A DNA stretch of 14,242 nucleotides from a virus. Its lineage: Duplodnaviria; Heunggongvirae; Uroviricota; Caudoviricetes. The notes beneath the pieces were generated by a model that saw only the letters and a program-made list of their open reading frames with translations, was not told the DNA's origin and did not search any database. Shown here piece by piece: positions 1 to 14,242 of the stretch. Every line of letters begins with the position of its first letter. The stretch's first letter is position 1. The translations under genes were made by a program, and so were the position numbers. The stretch spans positions 1 through 14,242 of IMG/VR virus record IMGVR_UViG_3300029567_000055; one strand, written 5' to 3'.

Positions 1-258
1 GAAGGGCTGCGCACGAAAGAACGCCAGAAACAGCTGGTCGCGGAAGGGAAAAGCCAGACCATGAACAGCCGCCACCTGACCGGTGATGCGGTGGATGTTG
101 TGGCCTACATTGGCAGCCAGGTGTCATGGGACTGGCCTCTGTACGAGAAAATCGTGCAGGCATTTAAGCAGGCTGCCGCAGAGCTGGGAACTGCCATCGA
201 ATGGGGCGGGGACTGGAAAACGCTGAAAGACGGGCCTCACTTTCAGTTGAAACGCTGA
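1..258 (+). CDS. Endolysin, peptidase M15/LAS family (likely L-alanyl-D-glutamate or D-Ala-D-Ala peptidase type); 5'-partial, C-terminal ~85 aa only
   Basis: Frame 1 is open from base 1 to the TGA at 256-258. The translation EGLRTKERQKQLVAEGKSQTMNSRHLTGDAVDV...DGPHFQL carries the SxHxxGxAxD and D...H zinc-ligand pattern typical of LAS/M15 phage peptidases. Its position immediately upstream of the packaging genes matches the end of a lysis cassette. Confidence 0.65.
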   Translation, partial: EGLRTKERQKQLVAEGKSQTMNSRHLTGDAVDVVAYIGSQVSWDWPLYEKIVQAFKQAAAELGTAIEWGGDWKTLKDGPHFQLKR

Positions 259-272
259 TAACCAGGTGTGTT

Positions 273-455
273 ATGAGCAGAAAACACTGGACACACAGAA
301 TGCCGCGAACGGCGGCGAAATGGGCACTGGTAGCGATACTGGTGCCTTTTTTATTGGTGGGATGCGTCAGCCTGGATAAGGCGCGCCAGCTTTTCGATAC
401 GGCTTCTCAGGTCTGCGAAATTGTTGACGGTGTTCGGCAGTGTCTGCAGAACTGA
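273..455 (+). CDS. Small lipoprotein (~60 aa precursor, ~30 aa mature), function unknown; lysis-cassette associated
   Basis: ATG at 273 follows AGGTG (264-268). The N-terminus MSRKHWTHRMPRTAAKW is basic, followed by a hydrophobic core ALVAILVPFLL and a lipobox L-V-G-C. The mature part has two more Cys. An alternative start is the ATG at 300 (MPRTAAKW). Confidence 0.5.
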   Translation: MSRKHWTHRMPRTAAKWALVAILVPFLLVGCVSLDKARQLFDTASQVCEIVDGVRQCLQN

Positions 456-626
456 TCGCCCGTAAGAGCAGAATATTTTGCTGAAAAATGAAGGATGCGT
501 CAGCGCCCGGAAAGCATGAAATTCTGTGTTTGCGGTCATTCAATAAAATAAATTCTTTCTTTCGCCGCGAATACTCAAATGTTGATCAGCGCCAGGTGCG
601 GCGACGGGCTTCGATATCAGGAGACG

Positions 627-905
627 ATGATGGGAAAAACAGAAAACAAACCGATTTTAGTTGGTGTCGCGTCTATTCCGTTTAAGTTTGAACTGTCACA
701 ACTGGTGGAAGTATGCATCAGTGATGAATGGGGTGAGGTTAAAGCTCGCGCTCAGTATGCAGATGGCGAAAACCAGTACTTGCTCCACTACAAAGCTGCT
801 GATGGTCGTGCCACGACGGAGTGGTTTGGTGAATCAATGCTGGAAGCAACAGAAGATGCTCGTCATCCGGGCTGTCCGGTATTTGCCTTCATGAAATTAC
901 CGTAA
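627..905 (+). CDS. Hypothetical small acidic cytoplasmic protein (~92 aa), moron-like
   Basis: AGGAG at 619-623 is followed by tandem ATGs at 627 and 630; 630 has the better spacing. The ORF is open to the TAA at 903-905. There is no TM segment or signal peptide and no motif I recognise. It is preceded by about 170 bp of AT-rich non-coding DNA. Confidence 0.5.
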   Translation: MMGKTENKPILVGVASIPFKFELSQLVEVCISDEWGEVKARAQYADGENQYLLHYKAADGRATTEWFGESMLEATEDARHPGCPVFAFMKLP

Positions 906-987
906 GGTGCGGTAGTTACTGAGTAACAGGCATTACAGCAGCCCTTCAGTGAGGGGCTGCGATAATGCCGGTATTAAGGAGATTCCA

Positions 988-1338
988 ATGCCATCACGAA
1001 TCCCCCGCGCATGCCGTAAGCGAGGTTGCGCAGGCACGACAACAGACAGCTCTGGCTACTGCGATAAACATCGGGGTGAAGGCTGGGTGCAGCACCAGCG
1101 CGGACTGAGCCGCCACCAGCGTGGCTATGGCTCAAAATGGACGGTGATTCGAGCCCGTATTCTGAAGCGCGATAAAGGTCTGTGTCAGTTGTGTCTGCGT
1201 GTCGGTGTGGTGCGCGAGGCGAAAACTGTCGACCACATCATCCCGAAAGCACATGGCGGAACAGATGCAGACAGCAACCTGCAGAGTCTGTGCTGGCCCT
1301 GCCACAAAGCGAAAACAGCGCGCGAACGAATCAGGTGA
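988..1338 (+). CDS. HNH endonuclease (terminase-associated)
   Basis: ATG at 988 follows AAGGA (976-980). The translation has Cys pairs (CRKRGCAG...CDKH; CQLCL...CWPCH) and the HNH core ...TVDHIIPKAHGG...N...CHKAK. It sits directly upstream of the terminase small subunit, as in HK97-like cos phages. Confidence 0.8.
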   Translation: MPSRIPRACRKRGCAGTTTDSSGYCDKHRGEGWVQHQRGLSRHQRGYGSKWTVIRARILKRDKGLCQLCLRVGVVREAKTVDHIIPKAHGGTDADSNLQSLCWPCHKAKTARERIR

Positions 1339-1485
1339 TAATTATTCTCACTTGTGGGGAGGGGCGGGTAAAATCCCTGCAGCCCTGGCTGCTCAGTACC
1401 GCCGCCTGACCTTTCCTCGCATCGCCGCAGGTTCGAAAACTTTTTTTTGGGAATGCGATCAAACGATTGATAGGTAAAACCGATT
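1339..1485 (+). other. Putative cos/packaging-initiation region (intergenic HNH-terS)
   Basis: A 147-bp non-coding gap between the HNH and terS genes, with a G-rich tract gtggggaggggcggg (about 1354-1368) and a T8 run (1441-1448). The assignment rests on position only. Confidence 0.3.
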
Positions 1486-1968
1486 ATGTCAGGACCCCCG
1501 AAAACCCCGCCACGCCTGCATTTGATACGAGGCAACCCATCAAAGCGCCCCGTTAAAGACCCCAAAAAAACCGCTAAAAAGGACGAAAAAGGTCTCCCTA
1601 AAATTCCGCAACATTTAGGGGCGCAGGGGAAGTACTGGTTCAGGCGAATGGCGGAAGAACTGAATGCGGAAGGGATCATTTCTCAGCTTGATGCGCGTGC
1701 ACTCGAGTTGCTGGTGGAAGCCTACACCGAATACCGGCATCACTGCGAAATACTCGATGTTGAGGGTTATACCTACCGCACGGAAACGCAGAACGGTGAT
1801 GTGCTGATTAAGGCACACCCGGCTGCTGCGATGAAAGCGGATGCCTGGAAGCGGATCCGGGCGATGCTTGCAGAGTTTGGTATGTCACCGGCAAGCCGGG
1901 CGAAAGTAAATACCGCCGGACCGGATGATGTTGATCCGCTGGCGGAACTTTTAAAAGCGAGAGACTGA
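1486..1968 (+). CDS. terS: Terminase small subunit, P27 family
   Basis: The 160-aa product has a basic Lys/Pro-rich N-terminus (KRPVKDPKKTAKKDEKGLPKIP) followed by ...YWFRRMAEEL...LDARALELLVEAY..., typical of P27-family TerS. Its stop overlaps the terL start as ATGA at 1966-1970. Confidence 0.8.
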   Translation: MSGPPKTPPRLHLIRGNPSKRPVKDPKKTAKKDEKGLPKIPQHLGAQGKYWFRRMAEELNAEGIISQLDARALELLVEAYTEYRHHCEILDVEGYTYRTETQNGDVLIKAHPAAAMKADAWKRIRAMLAEFGMSPASRAKVNTAGPDDVDPLAELLKARD

Positions 1969-3725
1969 TGGCAAAAGTGGCTGACGGGATCCGCTACGCC
2001 GAACGTGTTGTTGCAGGAGAAATTGTCGCTGGCGAATTTGTCCGTCTGGCCTGCCAGCGTTTTCTTGATGATCTGAAGTACGGCGAAGAGCGGGGGATTT
2101 ATTTCAGTGAACCCCGTGCGCAGCACATCCTGAATTTCTACAAATTTGTGCCCCATGTAAAAGGGGCGCTGGCAGGCCAGCCCATTGAACTGATGGACTG
2201 GCATGTATTTATTCTCATTAATATTTTTGGTTTTGTCATTCCGCTGGTCAATGAAGAGACCAGGGAAGTTGTTATGCGCAGCGATGGCAGCGGACGTCCG
2301 GTGATGGTGCGCCGGTTCCGGACGGCGTACAACGAAGTCGCCCGTAAAAACGCAAAATCAACCCTGTCATCGGGTATCGGTCTGTATATGACGGGGGCAG
2401 ATGGTGAAGGCGGGGCTGAGGTGTATTCAGCCGCAACCACGCGTGACCAGGCCAGAATCGTGTTTGAAGACGCCAAAAATATGGTCAGAAAAGCCCGGTC
2501 GACACTCGGGCGATTGTTTGATTTCAACAAGCTGGCGATTTACCAGGAGCAGAGCGCATCAAAATTTGAACCGCTTTCTTCGGATGCAAACAACCTGGAT
2601 GGTCTGAACATCCACTGCGCCATTATTGATGAGCTGCATGCACATAAAACCCGCGACGTGTGGGACGTTCTGGAAACGGCAACTGGTGCCCGTCTGCAGT
2701 CCCTGTTATTTGGTATCACCACGGCTGGCTTTAACAAGGAAGGGATTTGTTACGAGCAACGCGATTACGCCATCAAGGTATTGCGTGGCTATAACAGTGA
2801 CGTGGAGGGCGCGGTAAAAGACGACTCTTACTTTGCGATCATTTACACGCTCGATGAGGGAGATGATCCGTTTGATGAAACGGTCTGGCAGAAAGCGAAT
2901 CCCGGCCTGGGCATCTGTAAACGCTGGGATGATTTGCGTCGTCTGGCGAAAAAAGCGAAGGAGCAGGTTTCTGCGCGGGTGAATTTTTTCACGAAACACA
3001 TGAATGTGTGGGTCACTGCCGAATCTGCCTGGATGGACATGATTAAGTGGGAGAAGTGCGAATACATTGCTCCACAGCATGAGCTGAAAACATATCCCAT
3101 GTGGGTCGGTGTAGACCTTGCTCATAAGATTGATATCTGTGCGGCGGCAAAACTCTGGCGAACCGATAACGGACATGTTCATGCTGATTTTAAATTCTGG
3201 CTCCCGGAAGGACGGCTGGAGCGGTGCTCGCGGCAGCAGGCAGAACTTTACCGGAAATGGGCGGAGATGGATAAGCTCATCCTGACGGATGGTGATGTTA
3301 TCGATCATGCTCAGATAAAAAGTGACTTACTGGAATGGATTGGTGGTGAAAACCTGAGGGAGCTGGGATTTGACCCGTGGAGTGCAATGCAGTTCAGTCT
3401 GGCTCTGGCTGAAGAAGGGATACCGCTGGTGGAAGTTCCGCAGACGGTCCGCAATCTGTCAGAGGCTATGAAGGAAACGGAATCACTGGTCTATGCCGGG
3501 CGTTTTCACCACAGCAATCACCCGGTCATGAACTGGATGATGTCTAACGTTACGGTAAAACCGGACAAAAACGACAATATCTTCCCGAACAAATCCACGC
3601 CTGAAGCCAAAATCGACGGTCCTGTTGCGATGTTTACAGCAATGAGCCGGATGCTGGTCAATGGCGGTGAACCGGAGCCGGATCTGTCTGAGCATCTGGT
3701 CAGCGTTGGTATTCGCTCGCTTTAA
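1968..3725 (+). CDS. terL: Terminase large subunit (HK97-like, Terminase_1 type ATPase-nuclease)
   Basis: The 585-aa ORF contains [18 protein letters not shown] (Walker-A-like), ...[13 protein letters not shown] (Walker B / DExH-like) and a C-terminal nuclease-like region. It is translationally coupled to terS. Confidence 0.9.
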
Positions 3726-3736
3726 CCGAGGGCATT

Positions 3737-3919
3737 ATGTTTCTGATAATTCTCACGCCACTGGTGGGCGTGCTGGGGGCGCTTTTGCTGGCGTATGGCG
3801 CCTGGCTGATTTATCCCCCGGCAGGTTTTGTTGTTGCCGGGGCGCTGTGTCTGTGCTGGTCGTGGCTGGTTGCGCGTTATCTCGATCGCGGTCACCGGGT
3901 CGCCTCTGGAGGTGAGTAA
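3737..3919 (+). CDS. Small membrane protein, 2 predicted TM helices (60 aa), unknown function
   Basis: ATG at 3737 follows GAGGG (3727-3731). The translation shows two hydrophobic helices ([23 protein letters not shown] and [17 protein letters not shown]) and a charged tail. Its TAA overlaps the portal ATG (TAATG at 3917-3921), indicating translational coupling. Confidence 0.5.
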
Positions 3920-5160
3920 TGTTTTTCCAGGGGCTTTTTCAACGCAAAAATAACACCCCCGTCACAACGCCCGGGATGCTTGCGGAAGAGCTGGGGTTGT
4001 CATACGACACCTATACCGGAAAGCGGATCAGCAGCCAGCGGGCCATGCGGCTGACGGCGGTCTATTCCTGCGTCAGGGTGCTGGCTGAGTCTGTTGGTAT
4101 GCTGCCCTGCAGTCTCTACAAAATCAGCGGCACCCTTAAAACACGGGCGGTGGATGAACGGCTGCATAAGCTGATTTCGGCAAAACCCAATGGCTACATG
4201 ACGCCGCAGGAATTCTGGGAACTGGTTATCGTCTGCCTGTGTCTGCGGGGTAATTTTTACGCCTACAAGGTAAAGGCACTGGGGGAAGTGGTGGAGCTTC
4301 TTCCGATAGATCCGGGCTGTGTGGAACCGAAGCTGAACAGCCAGTGGCAGCCGGTTTATCAGGTGACGTTTCCGGATGGTTCCGTGGATGTGCTGACCCA
4401 GAATGAAATCTGGCATGTGCGTACCCTGACGCTGGATGGACTTGTCGGTCTGAATCCCATTGCATATGCGCGCGAGGCCATTTCACTGGCAGCGGCAACC
4501 GAGGAGCATGGTGCCAGATTGTTTGGCAATGGCGCGGTAACATCCGGTGTGTTGCGTACGGATCAACAACTTTCTGACCAGGCTTATGCGCGTATCAAAA
4601 AGGATTTTGAGGAACGGCATGTCGGGCTGGGAAACTCTCATCGTCCGATGATTCTGGAAATGGGGCTGGACTGGAAAACGGTGGCACTGAATGCCGAGGA
4701 CAGCCAGTTCCTGGAAACCCGCAAGTTTCAGCTGGAAGAAATCTGTCGCCTGTTCCGCGTGCCGCTGCATATGGTGCAGAACACCGATCGCGCCACCTTC
4801 AACAATATTGAAGAGCTGGGGCTTGGTTTCATTAACTATTCCCTTGTGCCGTATCTGACCCGTATTGAGCAGCGGATCAATACAGGGCTGGTCAGGGAGA
4901 GCAAGCAGGGAAAATTTTACGCCAAGTTTAATGCCGGAGCATTGTTGCGTGGCGACATGAAATCCCGCTTTGAAGCGTATGCCACGGGGATCAACTGGGG
5001 GATTTATTCCCCTAATGACTGCCGTGATCTGGAAGATATGAATCCCCGACCGGGCGGTGATGTGTATCTGACACCGATGAACATGACCACCAGTCCCTCT
5101 GCTGGCGATGACAACGGTAAGAAAAAGGAGAGTGGAGATGCAGACAAAACAGCGTCTTGA
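3919..5160 (+). CDS. Portal protein, HK97 family
   Basis: A 413-aa ORF immediately after terL in the canonical position, with the size and sequence character of HK97-family portals. Its 3' end overlaps the protease gene. Confidence 0.85.
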   Translation: MFFQGLFQRKNNTPVTTPGMLAEELGLSYDTYTGKRISSQRAMRLTAVYSCVRVLAESVGMLPCSLYKISGTLKTRAVDERLHKLISAKPNGYMTPQEFWELVIVCLCLRGNFYAYKVKALGEVVELLPIDPGCVEPKLNSQWQPVYQVTFPDGSVDVLTQNEIWHVRTLTLDGLVGLNPIAYAREAISLAAATEEHGARLFGNGAVTSGVLRTDQQLSDQAYARIKKDFEERHVGLGNSHRPMILEMGLDWKTVALNAEDSQFLETRKFQLEEICRLFRVPLHMVQNTDRATFNNIEELGLGFINYSLVPYLTRIEQRINTGLVRESKQGKFYAKFNAGALLRGDMKSRFEAYATGINWGIYSPNDCRDLEDMNPRPGGDVYLTPMNMTTSPSAGDDNGKKKESGDADKTAS

Positions 5161-5788
5161 TATACCGCTGAACCTGAAATCCGTCAGTGATTCCGGGGAA
5201 TTTGAAGGTTACGGTTCTGTTTTTGGTGTTAAGGACAGCCACGATGATGTGGTGGTCCCCGGAGCCTTTACCACAACACTCCAGAAATGGAGCGAAAAAA
5301 AGGCGCTGCCTGCGTTGCTCTGGCAGCACCGCATGGATGAGCCCATCGGTGTGTACACCGAAATGAAAGAAGATGATGTCGGGCTTTATGTCAGGGGACG
5401 ATTACTCATTGATGATGATCCCCTGGCAAAACGTGCACATGCCCATATGAAGGCCGGTTCTTTAACCGGCCTTTCTATTGGCTACATCCTGAAAGACTGG
5501 GAGTACGACCGGGAAAAAGGGGTATTCCTGCTGAAAGAGATCGACCTGTGGGAGGTCAGTCTGGTGACGTTTCCTTCCAATGATGAAGCACGCATCAGCG
5601 ATGTGAAAAATGCGCTGGCGCGTGGGGAGATCCCTGATCAGAAAATTATTGAGCGGGTCCTGCGCGATGTTGGACTCTCGCGAACCCAGGCCAAAGCATT
5701 CATGGCCGGGGGATATGGCGCTTTATCCCTGCGTGATGCTGAGGATGTGGATGCCGCACTGAATGCACTGAAAAATCTTAAATTTTAA
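5138..5788 (+). CDS. Prohead maturation protease, HK97 family (S78/U35)
   Basis: ATG at 5138 follows AAGGAG (5126-5131). The product MQTKQRLDIPLNLKSVSDSGEFEGYGSVFGV.DSHDDVV.PGAF is the characteristic N-terminus of HK97-type prohead proteases. The gene lies between portal and capsid. Confidence 0.85.
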   Translation: MQTKQRLDIPLNLKSVSDSGEFEGYGSVFGVKDSHDDVVVPGAFTTTLQKWSEKKALPALLWQHRMDEPIGVYTEMKEDDVGLYVRGRLLIDDDPLAKRAHAHMKAGSLTGLSIGYILKDWEYDREKGVFLLKEIDLWEVSLVTFPSNDEARISDVKNALARGEIPDQKIIERVLRDVGLSRTQAKAFMAGGYGALSLRDAEDVDAALNALKNLKF

Positions 5789-5801
5789 TCAGGAGTAAAT
5801 A

Positions 5802-7028
5802 ATGGCTGTTGATATTAAAGACGTTGAACAGGTCGCGCAGGATTTGCAGCAGAAGTTTGACGATTTTAAGGCAAAAAACGACAAGCGCATTGACGCGATC
5901 GAACAGGAAAAAGGCAAGCTGGCCGAACAGGTGGAAAGCCTGAACGGGCAAATCAGCGAGCTGGAGAACCTGAAAAGCGACCTGGAAAAAGAGCTGGCAG
6001 ACATCAAGCGTCCGGCAGGCGGCACGCAAAATAAAGTTGCCGGTGAACACAAAGAAGCGTTTATCGGATTTATGCGCAAGGGGCGTGAAGACGGTCTGCG
6101 TGAACTTGAACGTAAGGCGCTTCAGGTAGGTAATGATGAAGATGGTGGTTATGCCATTCCGGAAGAACTGGATCGTACCATCCTGACGCTACTGAAAGAT
6201 GAGGTGGTGATGCGCCAGGAAGCCACTGTGATCACCCTCGGTGGCTCGGATTATAAAAAACTGGTGAATCTGGGCGGCACAACGTCCGGATGGGTGGGGG
6301 AAACGGATGCTCGTCCGGAAACCGCCACCTCAAAACTGGGTCTGATTGAACCCTTTATGGGGGAAATCTACGGCAACCCGCAGGCCACCCAGAAAATGCT
6401 CGATGATGCTTTCTTCAATGTGGAAGACTGGATCAACAGTGAGCTGGCGCTGGAATTTGCCGAGCAGGAAGAAATTGCCTTTACCAGTGGCGACGGCAGC
6501 AAAAAACCAAAAGGTTTTCTGGCTTACGAGTCCACCGATGAAGATGACAAGACCCGTGCGTTTGGCAAACTTCAGCACATTGCTTCCGGTGCGGCTTCCG
6601 GCGTGACTGCCGATGCGATCATTAAACTGATTTACACCCTGCGCAAGGCGCACCGCAGCGGCGCGAAGTTTATGATGAACAACAGCAGCCTGTTTGCCAT
6701 TCGTCTGCTGAAGGATAACGACGGAAATTATCTGTGGCGTCCGGGTATTGAGCTGGGTCAGCCTTCTTCTCTGGCAGGGTATGGCATCGTTGAGAATGAA
6801 CAGATGCCGGATATTGCTGCCGATGCAAAAGCCATTGCGTTTGGTAACTTCAAACGTGGCTATACCATCGTTGATCGCATCGGTACCCGTATCCTGCGCG
6901 ATCCGTACACCAATAAACCGTTTGTGGGTTTTTACACCACCAAGCGAACCGGCGGTATGCTGGTGGATTCTCAGGCGATTAAGCTGATGAAAATTGGGGC
7001 CGCAACCCGCCAGAAAGCCGCTGCGTAA
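5802..7028 (+). CDS. Major capsid protein, HK97 fold, with N-terminal coiled-coil delta (scaffold) domain
   Basis: ATG at 5802 follows AGGAG. The first ~100 aa are heptad-rich and charged (DLQQKFDDFKAKNDKRIDAIEQEKGKLAEQVESLNGQISELENLKSDLEKELADIK). The remainder has the size and composition of an HK97-type capsid protein. No separate scaffold gene is present. Confidence 0.9.
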   Translation: MAVDIKDVEQVAQDLQQKFDDFKAKNDKRIDAIEQEKGKLAEQVESLNGQISELENLKSDLEKELADIKRPAGGTQNKVAGEHKEAFIGFMRKGREDGLRELERKALQVGNDEDGGYAIPEELDRTILTLLKDEVVMRQEATVITLGGSDYKKLVNLGGTTSGWVGETDARPETATSKLGLIEPFMGEIYGNPQATQKMLDDAFFNVEDWINSELALEFAEQEEIAFTSGDGSKKPKGFLAYESTDEDDKTRAFGKLQHIASGAASGVTADAIIKLIYTLRKAHRSGAKFMMNNSSLFAIRLLKDNDGNYLWRPGIELGQPSSLAGYGIVENEQMPDIAADAKAIAFGNFKRGYTIVDRIGTRILRDPYTNKPFVGFYTTKRTGGMLVDSQAIKLMKIGAATRQKAAA

Positions 7029-7040
7029 TGCGGTTTTTTA

Positions 7041-7062
7041 TGCCCGCACAGTGTTGCGGGCA
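7041..7062 (+). promoter_or_regulatory. RNA stem-loop immediately upstream of the connector-gene RBS (8-bp stem tgcccgca/tgcgggca, 6-nt loop)
   Basis: A perfect 8-bp inverted repeat at 7041-7048 and 7055-7062. The 3' arm abuts GGAG (7063-7066) and the ATG at 7073. A weak ccgc/gcgg stem plus T6 (7018-7039) lies just upstream, spanning the capsid stop codon. Confidence 0.35.
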
Positions 7063-7072
7063 GGAGTTTCTG

Positions 7073-7390
7073 ATGGCAGCAATAGTGGAAAAACTCAGGG
7101 CGCAGTGCCGTATTGATACAGATGATGCAACTGATGATGAGTTACTGATGCTGTATTTCCGGGCTGCCTGCCGCAAGGCAGAAAATTTTATCAACCGTAA
7201 GCTTTATGAGGAGACGGTGCCGGAAGGTGATCCTGACGGGGTGCTTATAGCTGATGATGTTTTGCTGGCGCTCATGTTGCTGGTCGGACACTGGTACGAA
7301 AACCGGGAAAATTCCTCAGATGTCAGCAAGGCACCAGTTCCGTTTGGTTTTTCTTCTCTGCTGGAGCCTTATCGTTTTATTCCTTTGTAG
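7073..7390 (+). CDS. Head-tail connector protein (gp6-like / Phage_connect_1 type)
   Basis: ATG at 7073 follows GGAG. The product MAAIVEKLRAQCRIDTDDATDDELLMLYFRAACRKAENF matches the L..K.HLRID.DD.D..I...I.AA pattern of gp6-like connectors. It lies directly after the capsid gene. Confidence 0.65.
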   Translation: MAAIVEKLRAQCRIDTDDATDDELLMLYFRAACRKAENFINRKLYEETVPEGDPDGVLIADDVLLALMLLVGHWYENRENSSDVSKAPVPFGFSSLLEPYRFIPL

Positions 7391-7398
7391 GAGGAACC

Positions 7399-7737
7399 AT
7401 GCAGGCGGGCAGATTACGTGATCGCGTAACTATTCTGAATGTCACCACCGTCCGTTCTCCGTCAGGGCATCCGGTGGAGACAATGACGGAGGGGGCAACC
7501 GTATGGGCAGAAGTTAAGGGGATCAGCGGGAGGGAGAGAATATCAGGAGGTGCAGAAACCGCTCAGGCTACGGTCAGAGTCTGGATGCGATTTCGGCGCG
7601 ATGTGACAGCGACTTCACGTCTGAAAGTGCTGACCGGTGCATTTAAAGGGGTCACTCTTGGTATAGAAGGGCCACCAATACCGGATGCACGCGCCACCCG
7701 GCTTGAAATGCTCTGCAGTCTGAAGGGGAATGTGTGA
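7399..7737 (+). CDS. Head closure / head-tail joining protein (Phage_H_T_join type)
   Basis: ATG at 7399 follows GGAGG. The product MQAGRLRDRVTI...VWAEVKGISGRE...RVWMRFRRDV...RLEMLC fits the head-closure family profile. Its stop overlaps the next gene's start. Confidence 0.7.
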   Translation: MQAGRLRDRVTILNVTTVRSPSGHPVETMTEGATVWAEVKGISGRERISGGAETAQATVRVWMRFRRDVTATSRLKVLTGAFKGVTLGIEGPPIPDARATRLEMLCSLKGNV

Positions 7738-8183
7738 TGGATTTCAGTCTTGATTTTTCAGGTCTGGCGGATATTGCACGGGATCTGGAGACGCTCAGCA
7801 GGGCAGAAAACAATAAGGTTCTGCGCGATGCCACCCGTGCCGGTGCTGAAGTTATGCGGGATGCAGTTGTTGAACGTGCGCCGGAGCGAACCGGGAAACT
7901 GAAGAAAAATGTGGTTGTTCTCACGCAGCGTTCAAAGCGTCGGGGGGAAATTATCTCGGGTGTCCACATTCGCGGACGGAACCTGCGAACCGGAAACAGT
8001 GATAACAGCATGAAAGCCAGCGATCCCCGAAATGCGTTTTACTGGCGCTTTGTGGAGCTGGGAACGATAAACATGCCCGCGCATCCGTTCATTCGCCCGG
8101 CTTTCGATACGACAGAGGAACTGGCAGCACAGATTGCCATACAGCGAATGAATCAGGCTATTGATGAGGTCTTAAGTAAATGA
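7737..8183 (+). CDS. HK97 gp10-family protein (neck / tail-completion component)
   Basis: ATG at 7737 overlaps the upstream TGA (7735-7737); a GTG at 7734 is an alternative start. The motifs ...RAPERTGKLKKNVVV... and ...YWRFVELGTINMPAHPFIRPA are characteristic of the HK97 gp10 family. Confidence 0.75.
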   Translation: MDFSLDFSGLADIARDLETLSRAENNKVLRDATRAGAEVMRDAVVERAPERTGKLKKNVVVLTQRSKRRGEIISGVHIRGRNLRTGNSDNSMKASDPRNAFYWRFVELGTINMPAHPFIRPAFDTTEELAAQIAIQRMNQAIDEVLSK

Positions 8184-8524
8184 GGGAAGCCACACTGTAT
8201 TCCCTGCTGTCTCAACTGGCCGGAGGACAGGTTTATCCTTATGTGGTCCCGCTGACGGAGGGAAAGCCTGCGGTATCTCCGCCGTGGCTGGTGTTTTCTG
8301 TGGTGTCTGACACGGCGTCTGATGTGCTTGATGGTCAGGCTGAATCCAGAATTACCGTGCAGATCGATGTCTGGGCAACAGTACCTGATGACGCAGATGA
8401 TATCCGTGAGCAGGCGCTTGATGCGGTAAGGCAACTTGCACCCTCCGTTATTTCTAAAACTCAGGGTTATGATCCTGATTCCCGTCTGAGCAGAGCCACG
8501 CTTGAATTTCAGGTAATAGCCTGA
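8180..8524 (+). CDS. Tail terminator / tail-completion-like protein (DUF3168 or gpU-like, tentative)
   Basis: ATG at 8180 overlaps the upstream stop (ATGA). The 114-aa product lies between the neck genes and the major tail gene, the position occupied by U-like tail terminators. The family assignment is by position and size. Confidence 0.5.
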   Translation: MREATLYSLLSQLAGGQVYPYVVPLTEGKPAVSPPWLVFSVVSDTASDVLDGQAESRITVQIDVWATVPDDADDIREQALDAVRQLAPSVISKTQGYDPDSRLSRATLEFQVIA

Positions 8525-8544
8525 GGTCGTTAATGATTTTACCC

Positions 8545-8571
8545 ACCCGCCGCTGGCGGGTTTTTTATTTT
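8545..8571 (+). terminator. Intrinsic (rho-independent) terminator
   Basis: A GC stem cccgcc (8546-8551) / ggcggg (8555-8560) with loop gct, extended by a45:t61, followed by TTTTTTATTTT (8561-8571). It lies in the gap between the DUF3168-like gene and the major tail gene. Confidence 0.6.
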
Positions 8572-8583
8572 CAGGAGACGAGT

Positions 8584-9288
8584 ATGTCCTCTAATTTTGA
8601 GCGTTCGCAACTGACGAAAATTATGATTTCGTCTGCACCGGTAACAGCAGAAACCCTGGATTCTGCCAGCTATCTTGGCCTGAGCTGTACAATCAAAGAG
8701 GTGCAGTTTACCGCAGGACAAAAGCAGGATATTGATGTCACCACGCTGTGTTCTGTTGAGCAGGAAAATATTAACGGCCTTGGTGCCGCGTCAGAGATTT
8801 CCATGTCAGGCAACTTTTACCTCAATGCTGCCCAGAACGCGTTGCGCAGTGCCTATGACAATGACACCACGTATGGCTTTAAAGTTATTTTTCCGTCAGG
8901 CAACGGATTTACCTTTATGGCAGAGGTGCGTCAGCATACCTGGTCTGCAGGAACTAATGGTGTTGTGGCTGCAACGTTTTCCCTGCGCCTGAAAGGTAAA
9001 CCTGTGCTGACGACAGAGCCGCTGAAAGTGAAGGTCGATTTAAACAGCACGCTGCAGGTTTCTGCCGGAGCGAAACTCGAAATGGTGGTTGAGGCTGCCG
9101 GTGGTGTGCCGCCTTATTCTTATGTCTGGAAGAAAGGTAGTTCTCCTGTTTCCGGACAGACGGCGGCAACATTCAGTAAGGCATCAGCAGCATCAGGTGA
9201 TGCCGGTGCGTATACCTGCGAGATTTCTGATTCAGCAAGCCCTGTTAACAAGGTGACCTCCACTTCCTGCACTGTTACCGTCAGTTAA
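8584..9288 (+). CDS. Major tail (tube) protein with C-terminal Ig-like domain
   Basis: ATG at 8584 follows CAGGAG (8572-8577), downstream of the terminator. The N-terminal ~150 aa are tail-tube-like. The C-terminal ~90 aa (LQVSAGAKLEMVVEAAGGVPPYSYVWKK...GDAGAYTCEISD...CTVTVS) has the I-set/Big-like Ig signature (W...Y.C). Confidence 0.75.
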   Translation: MSSNFERSQLTKIMISSAPVTAETLDSASYLGLSCTIKEVQFTAGQKQDIDVTTLCSVEQENINGLGAASEISMSGNFYLNAAQNALRSAYDNDTTYGFKVIFPSGNGFTFMAEVRQHTWSAGTNGVVAATFSLRLKGKPVLTTEPLKVKVDLNSTLQVSAGAKLEMVVEAAGGVPPYSYVWKKGSSPVSGQTAATFSKASAASGDAGAYTCEISDSASPVNKVTSTSCTVTVS

Positions 9289-9302
9289 TGAGGATAGATG
9301 TG

Positions 9303-9674
9303 ATGACTAAAAATATCCGCAATCTGGCACTGGCAACGATGTCGGGGTTTCGCCATAAAACTGTTGATGTGCCTGAATGGGAAGGGGCAACGGTTGTATT
9401 ACGGGAACCTTCTGCAGAAGCCTGGTTGCGCTGGCAGGAGATCGTTAAAGCAAAAGATGATGAGACACCGTTATCCGTTGCGGAGCGCGCCCGCCGAAAT
9501 CTGGAGGCAGATGTTGAACTGTTCATTGATGTTCTGTGTGATACCGGACTGCAACCTGTATTTTCAGAGGATGATCGTGAACAGGTGATTGCCGTGTATG
9601 GCCCGGTGCATGCGCGGCTTCTTCGGCAGTCTCTGGAACTGATCAGTGATGCCGGCGAGGTTAAAAAAAAGTAG
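9303..9674 (+). CDS. Tail assembly chaperone (lambda G-like), frame-0 product
   Basis: ATG at 9303 follows AGGAT (9291-9295); an in-frame ATG at 9288 overlaps the upstream stop. The ORF ends ...EVKKK-TAG at 9672-9674, directly on an A8G slippery run. It lies immediately upstream of the tape measure gene. Confidence 0.75.
   Translation: MTKNIRNLALATMSGFRHKTVDVPEWEGATVVLREPSAEAWLRWQEIVKAKDDETPLSVAERARRNLEADVELFIDVLCDTGLQPVFSEDDREQVIAVYGPVHARLLRQSLELISDAGEVKKK
9665..9671 (+). promoter_or_regulatory. Programmed -1 ribosomal frameshift slippery heptamer A_AAA_AAG (G/GT-type)
   Basis: Frame-0 codons are AAA(9666-8) AAG(9669-71) TAG. The -1 frame is blocked by TAA at 9662-9664 but open from 9665 to 9976, so a slip on this heptamer fuses the chaperone to the downstream ORF. 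Confidence 0.65.
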
Positions 9675-9976
9675 AGCTTCCGGGGATGCGTTTTCTGATG
9701 ATGCTGGCGCTCAGGATGGGGCGCACATTGTCAGAGTTACGCCGGGAAATGTCCGCATCAGAAATCATGATGTGGGCAGAATTTGACAGGTACAGCCCGC
9801 TGGGTGACGAGCGGGCTGATATCCGGGCTGCCCAGATAGTTTCTGCGGTTTACGGTGCGCAGGGTGTCAAAGTCCCACTGAATGATGCGCTTCTTCAGTG
9901 GGAACAAGAGCAGACAGAAGGCGTCTCAGATCCATTTGCCGGACTGGAAAACGCGCTTTTAATAGTGTCTCAGTGA
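9665..9976 (+). CDS. Tail assembly chaperone frameshift extension (lambda T-like part of a G-T fusion)
   Basis: This is the -1 frame relative to the chaperone, open 9665..9976. It has no Shine-Dalgarno of its own before the first ATG at 9686. The predicted fusion junction is ...EVKKK-K-VELPGMRFLMM.... Confidence 0.6.
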   Translation, partial: KKVELPGMRFLMMLALRMGRTLSELRREMSASEIMMWAEFDRYSPLGDERADIRAAQIVSAVYGAQGVKVPLNDALLQWEQEQTEGVSDPFAGLENALLIVSQ

Positions 9977-9984
9977 GTCAACAT

Positions 9985-10006
9985 AACCGCTTCGGCGGTT
10001 TTTTTC
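9985..10006 (+). terminator. Intrinsic terminator with UUCG tetraloop
   Basis: Stem aaccgc (9985-9990) / gcggtt (9995-10000) with loop ttcg, followed by a T-run through 10005. It lies between the G-T extension stop (9976) and the tape measure start. Confidence 0.6.
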
Positions 10007-10015
10007 GTCCGGAGA

Positions 10016-13000
10016 ATGAGTGTGGCGACATTACGTGAACTGATTATTAAAATCTCGGCAAATTCCCGGTCATTCCAGTCAGAGATCTCCCGGGCTTCGC
10101 GTATGGGGCAGGATTACTACCGTACCATGCAGAACGGAGGCCGGCAGTCCGCTGCTGCATCCCGTGAAATGCGGCGTGCACTGGCAGAAGTGACGGATCA
10201 GATAAATACAGCTAAATCTTCGGCACTGAATATGGCGGGGGCATTTGCCGGAGCTTTTGCTACNNNNNNNNNNGTCATCTTATTTCTCTCGCCGATGAGT
10301 GGAATTCAGTAAATGCCCGTCTGAAGCAGGCTTCACAGTCCAGTGATGATTTTCAGGTATCACAACGTGAATTAATGGCAATCAGCCAGAGAACGGGAAC
10401 GGCGTTTTCTGATAACGCCAGCCTTTTTGCCCGCTCTGCAGCTTCCATGCGGGAGTATGGCTACAGTTCTGAGGAGGTACTGAAAGTCACCGAGGCGATC
10501 TCCACGGGCCTGAAATTATCCGGTGCCAGTACAGCAGAAGCCAGTTCGGTGATCACGCAGTTCAGTCAGGCACTGGCGCAGGGAGTGCTGCGCGGTGAAG
10601 AATTTAACTCTGTGAATGAGAACGGCGATCGTGTTATTCGTGCGCTGGCTGCGGGAATGGGTGTTGCCCGTAAGGATCTGAAGGCCATGGCGGATAACGG
10701 AAAACTGACCGCCGATAAGGTTGTTCCTGCACTGATTAGTCAGCTTGGGGCGTTGCGTGATGAATATGCAGCAATGCCTGATACTGTTTCATCCTCTGCA
10801 ACCAAAGTTGAAAACGCCTTTATGGCCTGGGTTGGTGGTGCGAACGAGGCAAGCGGAGTGACAAAGACACTCACCGGGGTGTTGAATGGTGTTGCAGACA
10901 ATATTGATACCGTGGCTGCTGCAGCTGGCGCACTGGTTGCCGTCGGGGTAGCCCGATATTTTGGCAATATGGCGTCGTCTGCTGGATCTGCAACTGCCGG
11001 ATTAATTACTGCAGCCAGAAACGAAGTGGCTCTTGCTGAAGCGCAACTTCGGGGGACACAGATAGCAACCGCCAGGGCGCGTGCGGCGGTTTATCGTGCG
11101 CAACAGGCGGTTGTTGCTGCTCGCGGTACCGAAAGGCAGGCCGCAGCAGAAGCGAAGCTGACAGCTGCCCAGGCGTCACTTACCCGTAATATTGCGGCCA
11201 GAACAGCGGCACAGACAACGCTGAATACTGTCACGTCAGTGGGGAGTCGTCTGTTAAGTGGTGCGCTGGGGTTGGTTGGTGGTGTGCCGGGACTCGTCAT
11301 GCTGGGGGCGACGGCCTGGTACACGATGTATCAGAATCAGGAGCAGGCCAGAGAATCTGCACGCCAGTATGCCGCAACAATCGACGAAATTCGCCAGAAA
11401 ACGTCGGCAATGTCGCTTCCTGAAGCGTCAGATAATGAGGAAAAGACGCGGCAGGCACTTGATGAGCAAAACAGGTTAATTGACGAGCAGAAAAGTAAGA
11501 TTAAATCCTTACAGGAAAAAATTGCTGGCTATCAGTATGTGCTGGCAAACCCGGGCTGGACAACCGATAACGGTTTTATGATTAACCACATGACGTCGGT
11601 AAAAACTGTCACAGAAGGGCTTGCAGAAGCAACAAATCAACTGGCAGTTGAACAGTCCCGTCTCACACAAATGCAGGGCAAAGCGCAATCCATTCAGGAT
11701 GTGCTTGCCGGGCTGGAGGAGCGACGGGTGGCGTTGATCCGTCAACAGGCCGCGGAACAAAACAAAGCGTATCAGTCCCTGTTGATCATGAATGGGCAGC
11801 ATACCGAGTTTAATCGCCTTCTCGGGCTCGGTAATGAATTACTTCAGCAGCGACAGGGGCTGGTGAATGTACCGTTACGGCTACCACAGGCAACCCTGGA
11901 TGATAAACAGCAGACCGCACTGAATAACAGCGAGCGCGAACTGGCTCTGTCCCGCCTGAAGGGGGAAGCCCGTGAGCGTGCCCGCCTGGGTTATGCTGCG
12001 GATGATCTCGGCTTTGTGGGAGAGGCGTATCAGACAGCCAGACAGAATTATATCAATAACTCACTGGATGCCTGGCGAAATAACCAGGCAAATAAACCCA
12101 AAGCGCATAAAAAGACCGAAGCGGAAAAAACAGAAGATATTTATAAACGGCTGATTAAACAGCAAAAAGAACAAATAGCACTGGCAGGGCAGAATACTGA
12201 ACTGGCTAAGATGAAATATCAGGTCAGTCAGGGCGAATTATCAACCCTGTCAGAAGCGCAGAAAAAAACGCTTTTGCAGAATGCAGCACTCATCGACCAG
12301 AAAAAGATTCGTGAGCAGCTTGCTGCGTATGAGAGCAGTCTGGCGGACAGTAATGCCAGTGCCCGGGCATCTGACGACGCGCAGTTGCTGGGATATGGTG
12401 AAGGCTCACGGATGCGTGAACGACTCCAGGAAATGTGGAGTATCCGGCAGACGTTTGAGCAGAAAAATAACGAACTGCTGAGACAGTATCAGGCCGGAGA
12501 AATTGAAGAAGCCCTGTGGAAACAGGAGAAAGAACTGAATAAAAAATATCTGGAAGAGCGTCTCAGCGATCAGCAGGATTATTATGCAAAGGCCGATGCT
12601 TTACGTAATAACTGGAATGCCGGACTCCAGGAAGGACTGACCAACTGGGCAGACAGTGCCACCGATTATGCTTCACAGGCGGCAGATGCTGTCGTTTCCA
12701 CGATGGACGGGCTGGTATCAAATATTTCCGATGCACTGGCCGGGAATGTTGTGGAGTGGAGGAACTGGGGGAGTTCAGTTCTCCGGGAAGTTTCAAAAAT
12801 TCTGATGAATGCAGCCATTGTTAACGGACTGAAATCACTCTCCGGTGCCGGAGGGTGGCTTGGTACGGTCGGCGGATGGATTTCGGGGGCGGTGGCAAAC
12901 GCAAAAGGTGGTGTTTACACATCGGCAAATCTGAGTGCTTACAGTAACACTATTGTGGATACACCGACGTATTTTGCTTTTGCGAAAGGTGCCGGGCTGA

Positions 13001-13257
13001 TGGGTGAGGCCGGGCCTGAAGCTATCATGCCACTGACACGGGCAGCGGACGGCTCTCTTGGGGTCAGAGCCATTGGCAATGTGAATGGTGGCGGTGGATT
13101 TGTTTATTCTCCCGTGTATCACATCAGCATTCAGAATCAAGGGAGCAATGGCGAGATAGATACGCGCTCAGCCAGGGGACTGGTGGATCTGATCGACAGC
13201 AGGGTTGTGTCAATTATGCAGTCATCGCGTCGGGATGGAGGATTATACAGTGCCTGA
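10016..13257 (+). CDS. Tail tape measure protein (lambda H-like), interrupted by a 10-N assembly gap
   Basis: ATG at 10016; a GTG at 10022 has better spacing from GGAG (10011-10014). The frame after the gap is open from the Ns through the listed 10375 start, reading ...HLISLADEWNSVNARLKQASQSSDDFQVSQRELMAISQ.... The product is long, Ala/Gln-rich and coiled-coil in the middle. The C-terminal part (...NWADSATDYASQAADAVVSTMDG...GGLYSA) resembles the lambda gpH C-terminus. The ORF track's 10016..10312 and 10375..13257 pieces are one gene. Confidence 0.8.
10264..10273. other. Assembly gap (run of 10 N)
   Basis: A literal nnnnnnnnnn in the sequence; the true length is unknown. The apparent frame change across it is therefore uninformative. 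Confidence 0.95.
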
Positions 13258-13591
13258 GCCTGAAGTTTTTAACTGGATCCCCCGTGAGGGGATGGAGACG
13301 ACACGAAAGCCATCAGTTATTACGGTAAAGTTTGGTGACGGATATGAACAGCGACGGGCTGGTGGTCTGAATGCGGATCTGAAAACGTTTAAACCGGTAT
13401 TTCGTGTCACAGATGAATACTCCCGTGCCGCGCTGGACAGTTTTTTATCCCGTCATGCCGGGATTCGTGCTTTTTTGTGGCGTCCGCCAAAACACAACAG
13501 GACTGTCCGGGTTGTCTGCAGGGAGTGGAGCATTTCGGATAATGCCATGTATACCGATTTTAACTGTACCTTTGAAGAGGTCACTCACTGA
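13250..13591 (+). CDS. M: Minor tail protein M (lambda gpM-like)
   Basis: GTG at 13250 follows GGAGG (13237-13241) and overlaps the tape measure stop. The product ...VKFGDGYEQRRAGGLNADLKTF...FLWRPP...VVCREWS... parallels lambda M (FGDGYSQRAPAGLNANLKTY...FLWTPP...VTCAKWS) as I recall it. Its stop overlaps the next ATG (ATGA at 13589-13593). Confidence 0.8.
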   Translation: MPEPEVFNWIPREGMETTRKPSVITVKFGDGYEQRRAGGLNADLKTFKPVFRVTDEYSRAALDSFLSRHAGIRAFLWRPPKHNRTVRVVCREWSISDNAMYTDFNCTFEEVTH

Positions 13592-14242
13592 TGCAGGATA
13601 TACAGCAGGAAACACTCAATGAGTGCACTAAAACGGAGCAATCCGCGCTGGTCGTGCTCTGGGAAATTGATCTGACAGAGGTCGGCGGAGATCGTTATTT
13701 CTTCTGTAATGAGCAGAACGAAAAAGGTGAAGCAGTCACCTGGCAGGGGCGGCAGTATCAGGCCTATCCCATTCAGGGAAGTGGATTTGAGATGAACGGT
13801 AAAGGAGCCAGTGCAAGGCCAACTCTGAAAGTCTCTAATCTGCACGGCATGGTCACAGGGATGGCGGAAGATCTGCAGAGTCTGGTCGGCGGAACGGTGG
13901 TCCGGCGTAAGGTTTACGCCCGTTTTCTGGATGCGGTGAACTTCGTCAACGGAAACAGCGAAGCCGATCCGGAGCAGGAGGTAATCAGCCGCTGGCGCAT
14001 CGAGCAGTGCAGCGAACTGAGCGCGGTGAGTGCCTCCTTTGTACTGTCCACGCCGACGGAAACGGATGGCGCTGTTTTTCCGGGGCGCATCATGCTGGCC
14101 AACACCTGCACCTGGACCTATCGTGGTGATGAGTGTGGTTATAGCGGTCCGGCGGTCGCGGATGAATATGACCAGCCGACCTCCGATATCACGAAGGATA
14201 AATGCAGCAAATGCCTGAGTGGCTGTAAGTTTCGCAATAACG
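13591..14242 (+). CDS. L: Minor tail protein L (lambda gpL-like), 3'-partial
   Basis: ATG at 13591; the frame is open to the window end. My translation MQDIQQETLNECTKTEQSALVVLWEIDLTEVGGDRYFFCNEQNEKGE...CTWTYRGDECGYSGPAVADEYDQPTSDITKDKCSKCLSGCKFRNN is near-collinear with lambda gpL as I recall it, including the C-terminal Cys cluster. Confidence 0.9.
   Translation, partial: MQDIQQETLNECTKTEQSALVVLWEIDLTEVGGDRYFFCNEQNEKGEAVTWQGRQYQAYPIQGSGFEMNGKGASARPTLKVSNLHGMVTGMAEDLQSLVGGTVVRRKVYARFLDAVNFVNGNSEADPEQEVISRWRIEQCSELSAVSASFVLSTPTETDGAVFPGRIMLANTCTWTYRGDECGYSGPAVADEYDQPTSDITKDKCSKCLSGCKFRNN

Follow-up and report, generated by a model that had tools for sequence, protein, structure and literature searches.

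Which kind of element separates the lysis and packaging genes in the late region of a lambdoid prophage, a self-contained moron or a more ordinary accessory cassette, is the question raised by the window analysed here, a stretch of 14,242 nucleotides comprising positions 1 to 14,242 of the IMG/VR virus record IMGVR_UViG_3300029567_000055 (Caudoviricetes). The original prediction for this stretch was a moron-like insertion at positions 456-987, composed of an AT-rich spacer, an isolated small acidic protein, a 13-bp palindrome and a hairpin. The analysis leads to a narrower delimitation: positions 464-928 probably represent one cassette of a hypervariable accessory-gene slot, located at the right end of the lysis module and ahead of the packaging module of a phiP27-like prophage. 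The cassette comprises a leader, conserved and non-coding, followed by a gene whose small acidic product is predicted to adopt an SH3-like β-barrel; in this prophage a nonsense mutation removes the last six residues, the old end of the gene persisting as the 'palindrome'. Cassettes of this type appear to be exchanged between a lipoprotein gene, on the left, and a conserved hairpin (929-969), on the right. Taken as a whole, the block is a damaged small accessory gene in a known lysis-packaging hotspot, dispensable, and belonging to a family already catalogued without function; beyond routine annotation, only the HspQ-like fold and the boundary hairpin stand out, both as modest leads.

A hypervariable slot between lysis and packaging genes

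The synteny of the locus was analysed by megablast against 5426 complete Escherichia coli genomes and in 93 fetched loci. The gene under study, an open reading frame (ORF) at 627-905 on the + strand, is present in 156 of these genomes, with up to five copies per genome, and precedes four or more different packaging modules. A query comprising window positions 200-1500 matched approximately 1100 E. coli genomes, mostly by the part encoding the HNH endonuclease and the P27-type small terminase (TerS). In about 850 genomes this HNH and P27 terminase block (80-90% identity) occurs but the lysis and ORF part that precedes it in the window is missing, as in PMV-1, the one inspected, where the Rz spanin gene is directly followed by the HNH gene; other genomes contain the lysis cassette and the ORF ahead of different packaging genes. 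Across the 93 loci, the order lipoprotein gene-then-ORF is constant in the E. coli phages, and the modules downstream of the ORF vary, including (i) Nu1/gpA, in most loci, (ii) HNH/P27 TerS, (iii) a sigma-70-like small terminase, and (iv) ParB and a terminase. Sharp megablast breakpoints are located at window positions 967/968 and 988, and further breakpoints at 526/614 and 913/920.

The empty state of the slot is found in locus L159, where the TGA stop codon of the lipoprotein gene is followed by TCACCA and then by the hairpin; the boundaries of the insert are therefore placed at approximately 464-928, which corrects the limits of 456-987 first proposed. The slot accommodates an unrelated 74-aa gene (phrog_2571) in strain WAT, an unrelated 69-aa gene (phrog_3909) in strain 503829, and a deletion remnant in GmM062. 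L016-type loci display a three-gene array, in which two small genes (74 aa, phrog_2571; 81 aa, phrog_4280) are inserted at window 526/614 ahead of the ORF, the junction segment 527-613 (+ strand) being the place of this ~630-bp insert in approximately 10 related loci. In two IMG/VR contigs, L062 and L075, a 169-aa gene that is AT-rich and has its own canonical intrinsic terminator, AAAACCCCGCTTTGCGGGGTTTTTATTG, is located between two copies of the hairpin (4397-4975 in L062), the second copy being preceded by a C-terminal remnant of the 130-aa form of the gene studied here; this 169-aa gene is a textbook moron next to the studied gene. The presence or absence of the block among relatives, together with the unrelated genes found in its place, bears out the early notion of swappable extra DNA in a lysis-packaging cargo hotspot.

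Outside E. coli, the neighbourhood of the gene changes further. In Salmonella, it follows Rz and overlaps the next gene (ATGA), with a 112-aa unknown and an HNH gene, and then a P27-type terminase, whereas in P2-like prophages of Yersinia and Ewingella it is located between gpM and gpL, overlapping gpM. Distant members in beta-, alpha- and delta-proteobacterial prophages are found near terminase or portal genes, and others in early regions, beside D5 primase, DUF2800 or AAA_23/PDDEXK genes. Because of these varied neighbours across phages, synteny indicates a wandering accessory gene, not bound to one lysis or packaging machine.

The accessory gene and its family

The ORF encodes 92 aa when read from the ATG at 627 and 91 aa from the ATG at 630, the latter being the better-spaced start and the one chosen by the Prokaryotic Genome Annotation Pipeline (PGAP). 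It is preceded by a ribosome-binding region (614-626, + strand), with AGGAG at 619-623, nearly invariant in relatives. The product has an isoelectric point (pI) of 4.9 and a net charge of approximately -5, in agreement with its first description as an isolated small acidic protein of 92 aa. The accompanying statement that the protein could not be placed in any family holds for Pfam and NCBIfam, where no match was found (none at E ≤ 1 in Pfam), but not for PHROGs: residues 2-92 align with profile positions 1-91 of the 116 of phrog_1935 (E = 8.9e-51), and the core matches phrog_8618 (E = 4.2e-26). A profile search of 1.84 billion representatives identified 676 members of the phrog_1935/8618 family at E ≤ 1e-3, with a shared core of ~58 residues (FKF.L.Q.V.I..SGE.G.V.GRAEY...N.Y..HYKAADGRA..W..E..L). 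Many members are stand-alone proteins of 60-65 aa, and the longer ones show no informative fusion domains. The 89 close homologues, from E. coli, Shigella, Salmonella and Yersinia, are all annotated as 'hypothetical', and literature searches found no study of L33, the orthologue in the Stx2e phage phiP27.

Among 42 distinct E. coli-type sequences, the ratio of nonsynonymous to synonymous polymorphism (pN/pS) is 0.18, indicative of purifying selection, and variable sites are concentrated at third codon positions (39, versus 20 and 17 at the others). A spurious ORF is ruled out by the pN/pS, the family profile and the structure model, and sequence comparison supports a real gene, starting at 627 or 630 and ending at 905, under purifying selection.

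The truncated 3′ end and the palindrome

The copy in the window ends at a premature TAA stop codon (903-905, + strand), the result of a G-to-T change at 903 in a codon that is GAA (Glu) in relatives; these end in LPEGAVVTE-stop, so that the window copy loses its last six residues. The following segment (906-926, + strand) is a fossil of the ancestral last codons G-A-V-V-T-E-stop (GGT GCG GTA GTT ACT GAG TAA), with the ancestral stop codon at 924-926. The 13-bp palindrome pointed out at 915-927, GTTACTGAGTAAC, does exist, and reads GTT ACT GAG TAA C, that is, V-T-E-stop plus C; it is likewise present as coding sequence in phiP27. Palindromes with 6-bp arms and a 1-nt centre occur four times in the window, compared with 3.3 ± 1.9 in shuffled sequences. 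A role of the palindrome as a signal is thus ruled out, because its frequency is that expected by chance and because it is former coding sequence behind a nonsense mutation.

The truncated allele is also found in E. coli CEA224S, where PGAP annotates a pseudogene without its C-terminus, and in a few viral contigs, among them L015. A census of alleles in distinct contexts comprises 38 of 99 aa, 11 of 131-132 aa, three of 116 aa, four of 92 aa and three with N-terminal frameshifts; the 130-aa forms are longer by ~100 bp, located between positions 913 and 920 of the window.

The spacer upstream of the gene

The spacer (456-626, + strand) is the longest gene-free gap of the operon, with 171 nt, followed by the 147-nt cos gap at 1339-1485; an apparent gap of 193 nt at 3726-3918 holds an ORF for a 60-aa membrane protein. 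The unusual length noted in the original prediction is therefore sustained, and the label 'AT-rich' only in part: the GC content is 46.8% in the spacer and 46.6% in the ORF, lower than in the window (52.3%) and the flanking genes (53.6-58.4%), a modest difference. The segment 456-526 (+ strand) is a conserved non-coding stretch with a near-invariant GAATATTTTGCTGAAAAATGAAGG, shared with variants that carry other cargo (WAT, L016-type and GmM062), and may be a common leader of the slot. The spacer measures 171 bp in 62 of 75 loci, and its nucleotide diversity (π = 0.048) matches the ORF value (0.050) and is about half the 0.09-0.12 observed at third codon positions, a contrast that is weaker in variable-site counts (36% versus 42%).

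The spacer shows no 3-base codon periodicity and its RNA fold is not significant (z = -0.55); Rfam covariance models gave no match at E ≤ 1 in 456-990, a range that includes both the spacer and the hairpin. A consensus scan found no sigma-70 promoter in 456-626, and the best site by position weight matrix (PWM) scores 7.1, the 78th percentile of 200-bp windows in a mostly coding window; such pattern scans can miss weak, non-sigma-70 or activator-dependent promoters. An 11-codon mini-ORF at 513-548 (MKFCVCGHSIK), in which third positions hold most of the few sites that vary, is probably not a gene, since the breakpoint at 526 interrupts it in other phages. At 604-606, the window reads GCCAGG where all relatives have GCCCGG, a change that breaks a small conserved stem (GCCCG...CGGGC) just 5′ of the ribosome-binding site.

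A boundary hairpin at the right edge of the slot

On its right side, the slot is bounded by a conserved 41-nt hairpin (929-969, + strand), GGCATTA-CAGCAGCCC-loop-GGGCTGCG-ATAATGCC, whose three apical base pairs covary. The hairpin first placed at 938-960 is thus real, although larger than described. In an 85-nt context it folds into a stable GC-rich stem-loop (-34.8 kcal/mol, z = -4.6). Copies of the element CATTACAGCAG-NNN-loop-NNN-CTGCGATAATG, 85-100% identical, are found in several phages, including (i) phi80, 4 nt after rha, (ii) Fels-1, between Rz and the terminase, (iii) the Edwardsiella phage EPP-1, (iv) Klebsiella phages, directly after the DUF2560 gene, and (v) phage cdtI, among others. 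A pattern scan retrieved it in at least 120 viral contigs, and the exact variant of the window is present in 77 E. coli genomes. In the examined loci, genes of at least 17 unrelated protein clusters have the hairpin 0-11 nt downstream of their stop codons, among them phi80 rha, Rz-like spanins, lipoproteins, the 60-aa lipoprotein itself and DUF2560. A same-strand ORF of at least 50 aa ends within 15 nt upstream in 76 of 96 orientation-unambiguous copies from distinct contexts, with a convergent ORF in 18 and a T-rich tail in 14.

Across 32 distinct variants, compensatory changes are observed at the three apical pairs (GC/CG, 13:12; CG/AU, 16:14); 88.9% of cells are paired, compared with 32-51% when the partners are slid, and none of 500 shuffles reaches the observed covariation. 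In the window, the tail of the hairpin, CCGGTATTAAGG, is the ribosome-binding region of the HNH gene, and therefore the structure is not a canonical intrinsic terminator here; it lacks a U-tract and was not called by the terminator scan. Nor does it belong to the insert, since the empty site contains it and many other genes are followed by it. The comparative evidence indicates an independent, structure-selected element that marks the right-hand boundary of the slot; no study of it was found in literature searches. On RNA, the hairpin would probably act as a 3′-end-forming or stabilising stem, of the terminator type, for transcripts that are not antiterminated; on DNA, it may provide a ~40-bp homology patch for cargo exchange. 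The element is conserved and covaries across phages of several enterobacterial genera; it could explain cargo exchange at this junction or the punctuation of late transcripts.

The predicted fold and its relation to HspQ

An AlphaFold2 model built on a 134-sequence alignment displays a small SH3-like β-barrel, with a predicted local distance difference test (pLDDT) score of 88, reaching 94-98 in the core; it was used instead of an earlier 35-sequence model of poor quality (pLDDT 58). As a prediction, the SH3-like barrel assignment is solid. In two independent structure searches, the best match of the model is HspQ (PDB code, 5ycq), with the same fold as the HspQ crystal structure, whereas a structure search of BFVD returned uncharacterised small phage proteins only. 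Alignment of the 134-sequence profile with an HspQ alignment of low diversity by hhalign gave a probability of 72% over 74 columns, including an H-P-x-x-P motif after the barrel common to the phage protein and HspQ; the value decreases to 42% against a single HspQ sequence, and to 3% with the shallow 35-sequence profile. Three observations argue against the link: the Pfam family PF08755 (YccV/HspQ-like) matches neither the window protein nor 41 family members at E ≤ 1; profile searches of PDB sequences returned no HspQ and noise only (YdhK, E = 0.017, then superoxide dismutases); and the hhalign alignment stops at HspQ residue 89, the phage protein lacking the C-terminal tail that includes K96. 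Homology to HspQ is thus only a lead.

In enterobacteria, HspQ is an acidic trimeric substrate and activity enhancer of Lon, whose K96-acetylated form is a ClpS inhibitor, and the T4 protein PinA provides a precedent for phage interference with Lon. The protein encoded at 627-905 would exert its effect through a host binding partner, and mimicry of HspQ, a modulator of the Lon and ClpS proteolysis pathways, is the most specific lead; such HspQ-like binding, with Lon or ClpS as the target, is speculative, and the chances are small. Direct nucleic-acid binding seems unlikely, because of the net charge of -5. A large, confidently folding family with HspQ as its nearest solved structure offers a concrete and cheap hypothesis, the binding of Lon or ClpS. 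The combination of the two leads, in which the hairpin is a dedicated boundary element of a phage cargo array and the barrel is a viral HspQ mimic without the Lon-degron tail, is a long shot. If it were true, the hairpin would be a 3′-end or processing signal of the late-operon RNA, or a ~40-bp recombination patch for cassette-wise swapping among lambdoid phages of E. coli, Salmonella, Klebsiella and Edwardsiella, and the HspQ mimic would rewire host Lon or ClpS proteolysis late in infection.

Expression and alternative explanations

The gene is co-oriented within the Q-dependent late operon, downstream of Q/pR', and its overlap with neighbouring late genes in Salmonella and Yersinia indicates operon expression. 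Since these features coincide with the absence of a promoter signal in the spacer, expression of the gene probably takes place late in the lytic cycle, through antiterminated read-through; it would then be transcribed as part of the Q-antiterminated late operon, and not from a promoter of its own. Morons have been described by four features, extra DNA, deviating GC, an own promoter and an own terminator (PMC3594210). Two of these are observed here: the extra DNA, located between genes that are otherwise adjacent (L159, PMV-1 and loci with other cargo), and the deviating GC. The hairpin is not a terminator of the insert, since it occurs even where the slot is empty, follows at least 17 unrelated genes and has no U-tract in the window. 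The block is therefore described as an ordinary accessory cassette and not as a classic moron.

The classic alternative, with a spacer promoter active in the repressed prophage, the hairpin as terminator and a lysogenic-conversion or anti-defence factor as product, is accordingly to be weighed against these observations. It would account for the presence/absence polymorphism and the lower GC, for a spacer whose length is fixed (171 bp) in 62 of 75 loci and whose diversity is about half that of third codon positions, and it finds true morons in the same lysis-packaging interval elsewhere, such as the 169-aa gene of L062 with its canonical terminator. Nevertheless, the promoter prediction called for at the outset gave no sigma-70 consensus match in 456-626 and a PWM score at the 78th percentile, the hairpin is shared with the empty site and many other genes and lacks a 3′ U-tract here, and the gene overlaps late genes in Salmonella and Yersinia; the suggestion of an anti-defence function found no support either, as PADLOC gave no match. 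On this balance, a classic moron is distinctly improbable. Still less credible is a conserved lysis accessory, partner of the lipoprotein, or a packaging accessory, partner of the small terminase or HNH protein, in place of cargo, even if in E. coli relatives the gene always lies directly 3′ of the lipoprotein gene and adjoins small-terminase genes in different phage types (P27-type, Nu1, and P2 gpM, between M and L). The adjoining terminase families are mutually unrelated, most P27-type modules lack the gene, the lipoprotein gene occurs without it, distant members reside in early regions (D5 primase, DUF2800, AAA_23/PDDEXK), and disrupted alleles are tolerated.

A more serious doubt, though still unlikely to be the right account, is that the window copy is a decaying pseudogene with no remaining function, and the region merely a relic. 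The premature stop at 903, the PGAP call on the 99%-identical CEA224S copy, with its C-terminus gone, and the unusual replacements D78A and G88F near the C-terminus in the window lineage are consistent with decay, and the three contexts with N-terminal frameshifts, together with three others with a premature stop in the C-terminal extension (116 aa), indicate that the gene is expendable. In contrast, only six residues are gone, and these are outside the confidently folded barrel (pLDDT ~62 at the end), in a tail that is naturally variable in the family, with 83-, 98- and 130-aa forms and core-only members of 60-65 aa; moreover, the same allele is carried by CEA224S and viral contig L015.

Several points weigh against the exchangeable late-operon cassette itself. 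A weak or non-sigma-70 promoter may reside in the conserved leader, and the fact that this leader is conserved about like coding sequence hints at a function of its own. The constant position of the gene beside the lipoprotein gene in E. coli could reflect functional linkage and not a shared slot. The outer stem of the hairpin was fixed by the search pattern by construction, and many of the hairpin loci were retrieved by the gene family or the hairpin pattern, which inflates their counts.

Genomic context of the cassette

Sequence comparison identifies the window as the late region of a phiP27-like lambdoid prophage in E. coli. Positions 270-1403, comprising the lipoprotein gene, the L33 orthologue and the HNH gene, share 93% nucleotide identity with phiP27, in which cos is annotated just 3′ of the HNH gene. 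A prophage of E. coli CEA224S, 99% identical to the window, displays upstream of it the Q antiterminator, cargo, two holins and the M15 endolysin, the usual lambdoid order, and the studied block is therefore located inside the late operon. In the window, the C-terminus of the M15-family endolysin (1-258) is followed by the gene of the 60-aa lipoprotein (273-455, + strand; lipobox LLVGC, phrog_7528), with which the M15-endolysin lysis cassette ends and which in E. coli relatives is invariably found ahead of the slot. Beyond the hairpin, the packaging module starts at 970-987 (+ strand), adjacent to the mosaic breakpoint 967/968, with the ribosome-binding site AAGGAG (976-981) of the HNH endonuclease gene (988-1338), followed by the cos gap (1339-1485), the P27-family small terminase (1486-1968) and the large terminase (1968-3725).

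Homology to phiP27 ends at window position ~1403-1406, the equivalent of the annotated cos of that phage; 3′ of this point the small terminase is of a different lineage, with ~84% identity to most E. coli prophages, which places a mosaic joint in or beside cos. A second variable slot is located within the lysis cassette: between the endolysin and lipoprotein genes (window 251-270 versus phiP27 3053-3541), phiP27 and several E. coli prophages display an extra ~490 bp, with a 93-aa gene (phrog_33497) and small ORFs. The 60-aa lipoprotein, directly after the M15 endolysin, contains two further Cys residues besides that of the lipobox, and no Rz-like partner was seen in the window. In L062 (3558-3731) and L159, a 57-aa protein with a hydrophobic C-terminus ends exactly at the lipoprotein start codon, which could be an unusual spanin arrangement. 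A terminator-like stem with a T-run called by the scan at 322-347, inside the lipoprotein gene, coincides with the part that encodes the signal peptide, probably by chance. Ten consecutive N at 10264-10273 (an assembly or scaffold gap) lie inside a predicted 98-aa ORF (10016-10312), before the ORF at 10375-13257. Two records, PP818812.1 (Actinobacillus phage vB_Apl-pPE4) and OM284015.1 (Elizabethkingia phage EKP1), contain E. coli- or Klebsiella-type sequence of this region; the hosts given for them seem questionable, or contamination may be involved. pPE4 shows 94.5% identity to window 273-526 and also has the hairpin.

Comparison with known systems

The closest counterpart of the gene is L33 of phiP27 (NP_543085), an orthologue with 86% amino-acid and 93% nucleotide identity, located in the same place between the lipoprotein and HNH genes. 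Annotated as hypothetical, L33 is full length, with 98 aa from the good start, unlike the truncated copy of the window, and phiP27 carries upstream of the lipoprotein gene the ~490-bp block that the window lacks. Genes annotated 'L33' in the ESSI2 P2-like phages count among the closest counterparts as well. The lambdoid morons, such as HK97 gp15 and lambda bor and lom (PMC3594210), resemble the block in the extra DNA, deviating GC, small accessory gene and hotspot location, whereas the block has no detectable promoter of its own, its hairpin belongs to the site, and its gene is probably expressed with the late operon.

The protein shares with HspQ/YccV (PF08755), the specificity-enhancing factor of Lon, the small size, the acidic character, the SH3-like barrel and the H-P-x-x-P motif after it; it lacks the ~15-residue loop of HspQ and has no equivalent of the C-terminal K96 tail, which governs Lon degradation and activation. 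The hairpin resembles intrinsic (Rho-independent) terminators as a GC-rich stem-loop directly 3′ of a stop codon, with a T-rich tail in 14 of 96 contexts, and differs from them in having no U-tract in the window and in most contexts. Boundary, or linker, sequences conserved between phage modules have been proposed as targets of homologous recombination (model summarised in PMC3233612), and the 41-nt hairpin, conserved between unrelated modules, located at the mosaic breakpoint 967/968 and flanking interchangeable genes, fits this description; it also displays compensatory pair changes and a preferred strand with respect to the gene that precedes it, which point to selection on structure and not on homology only.

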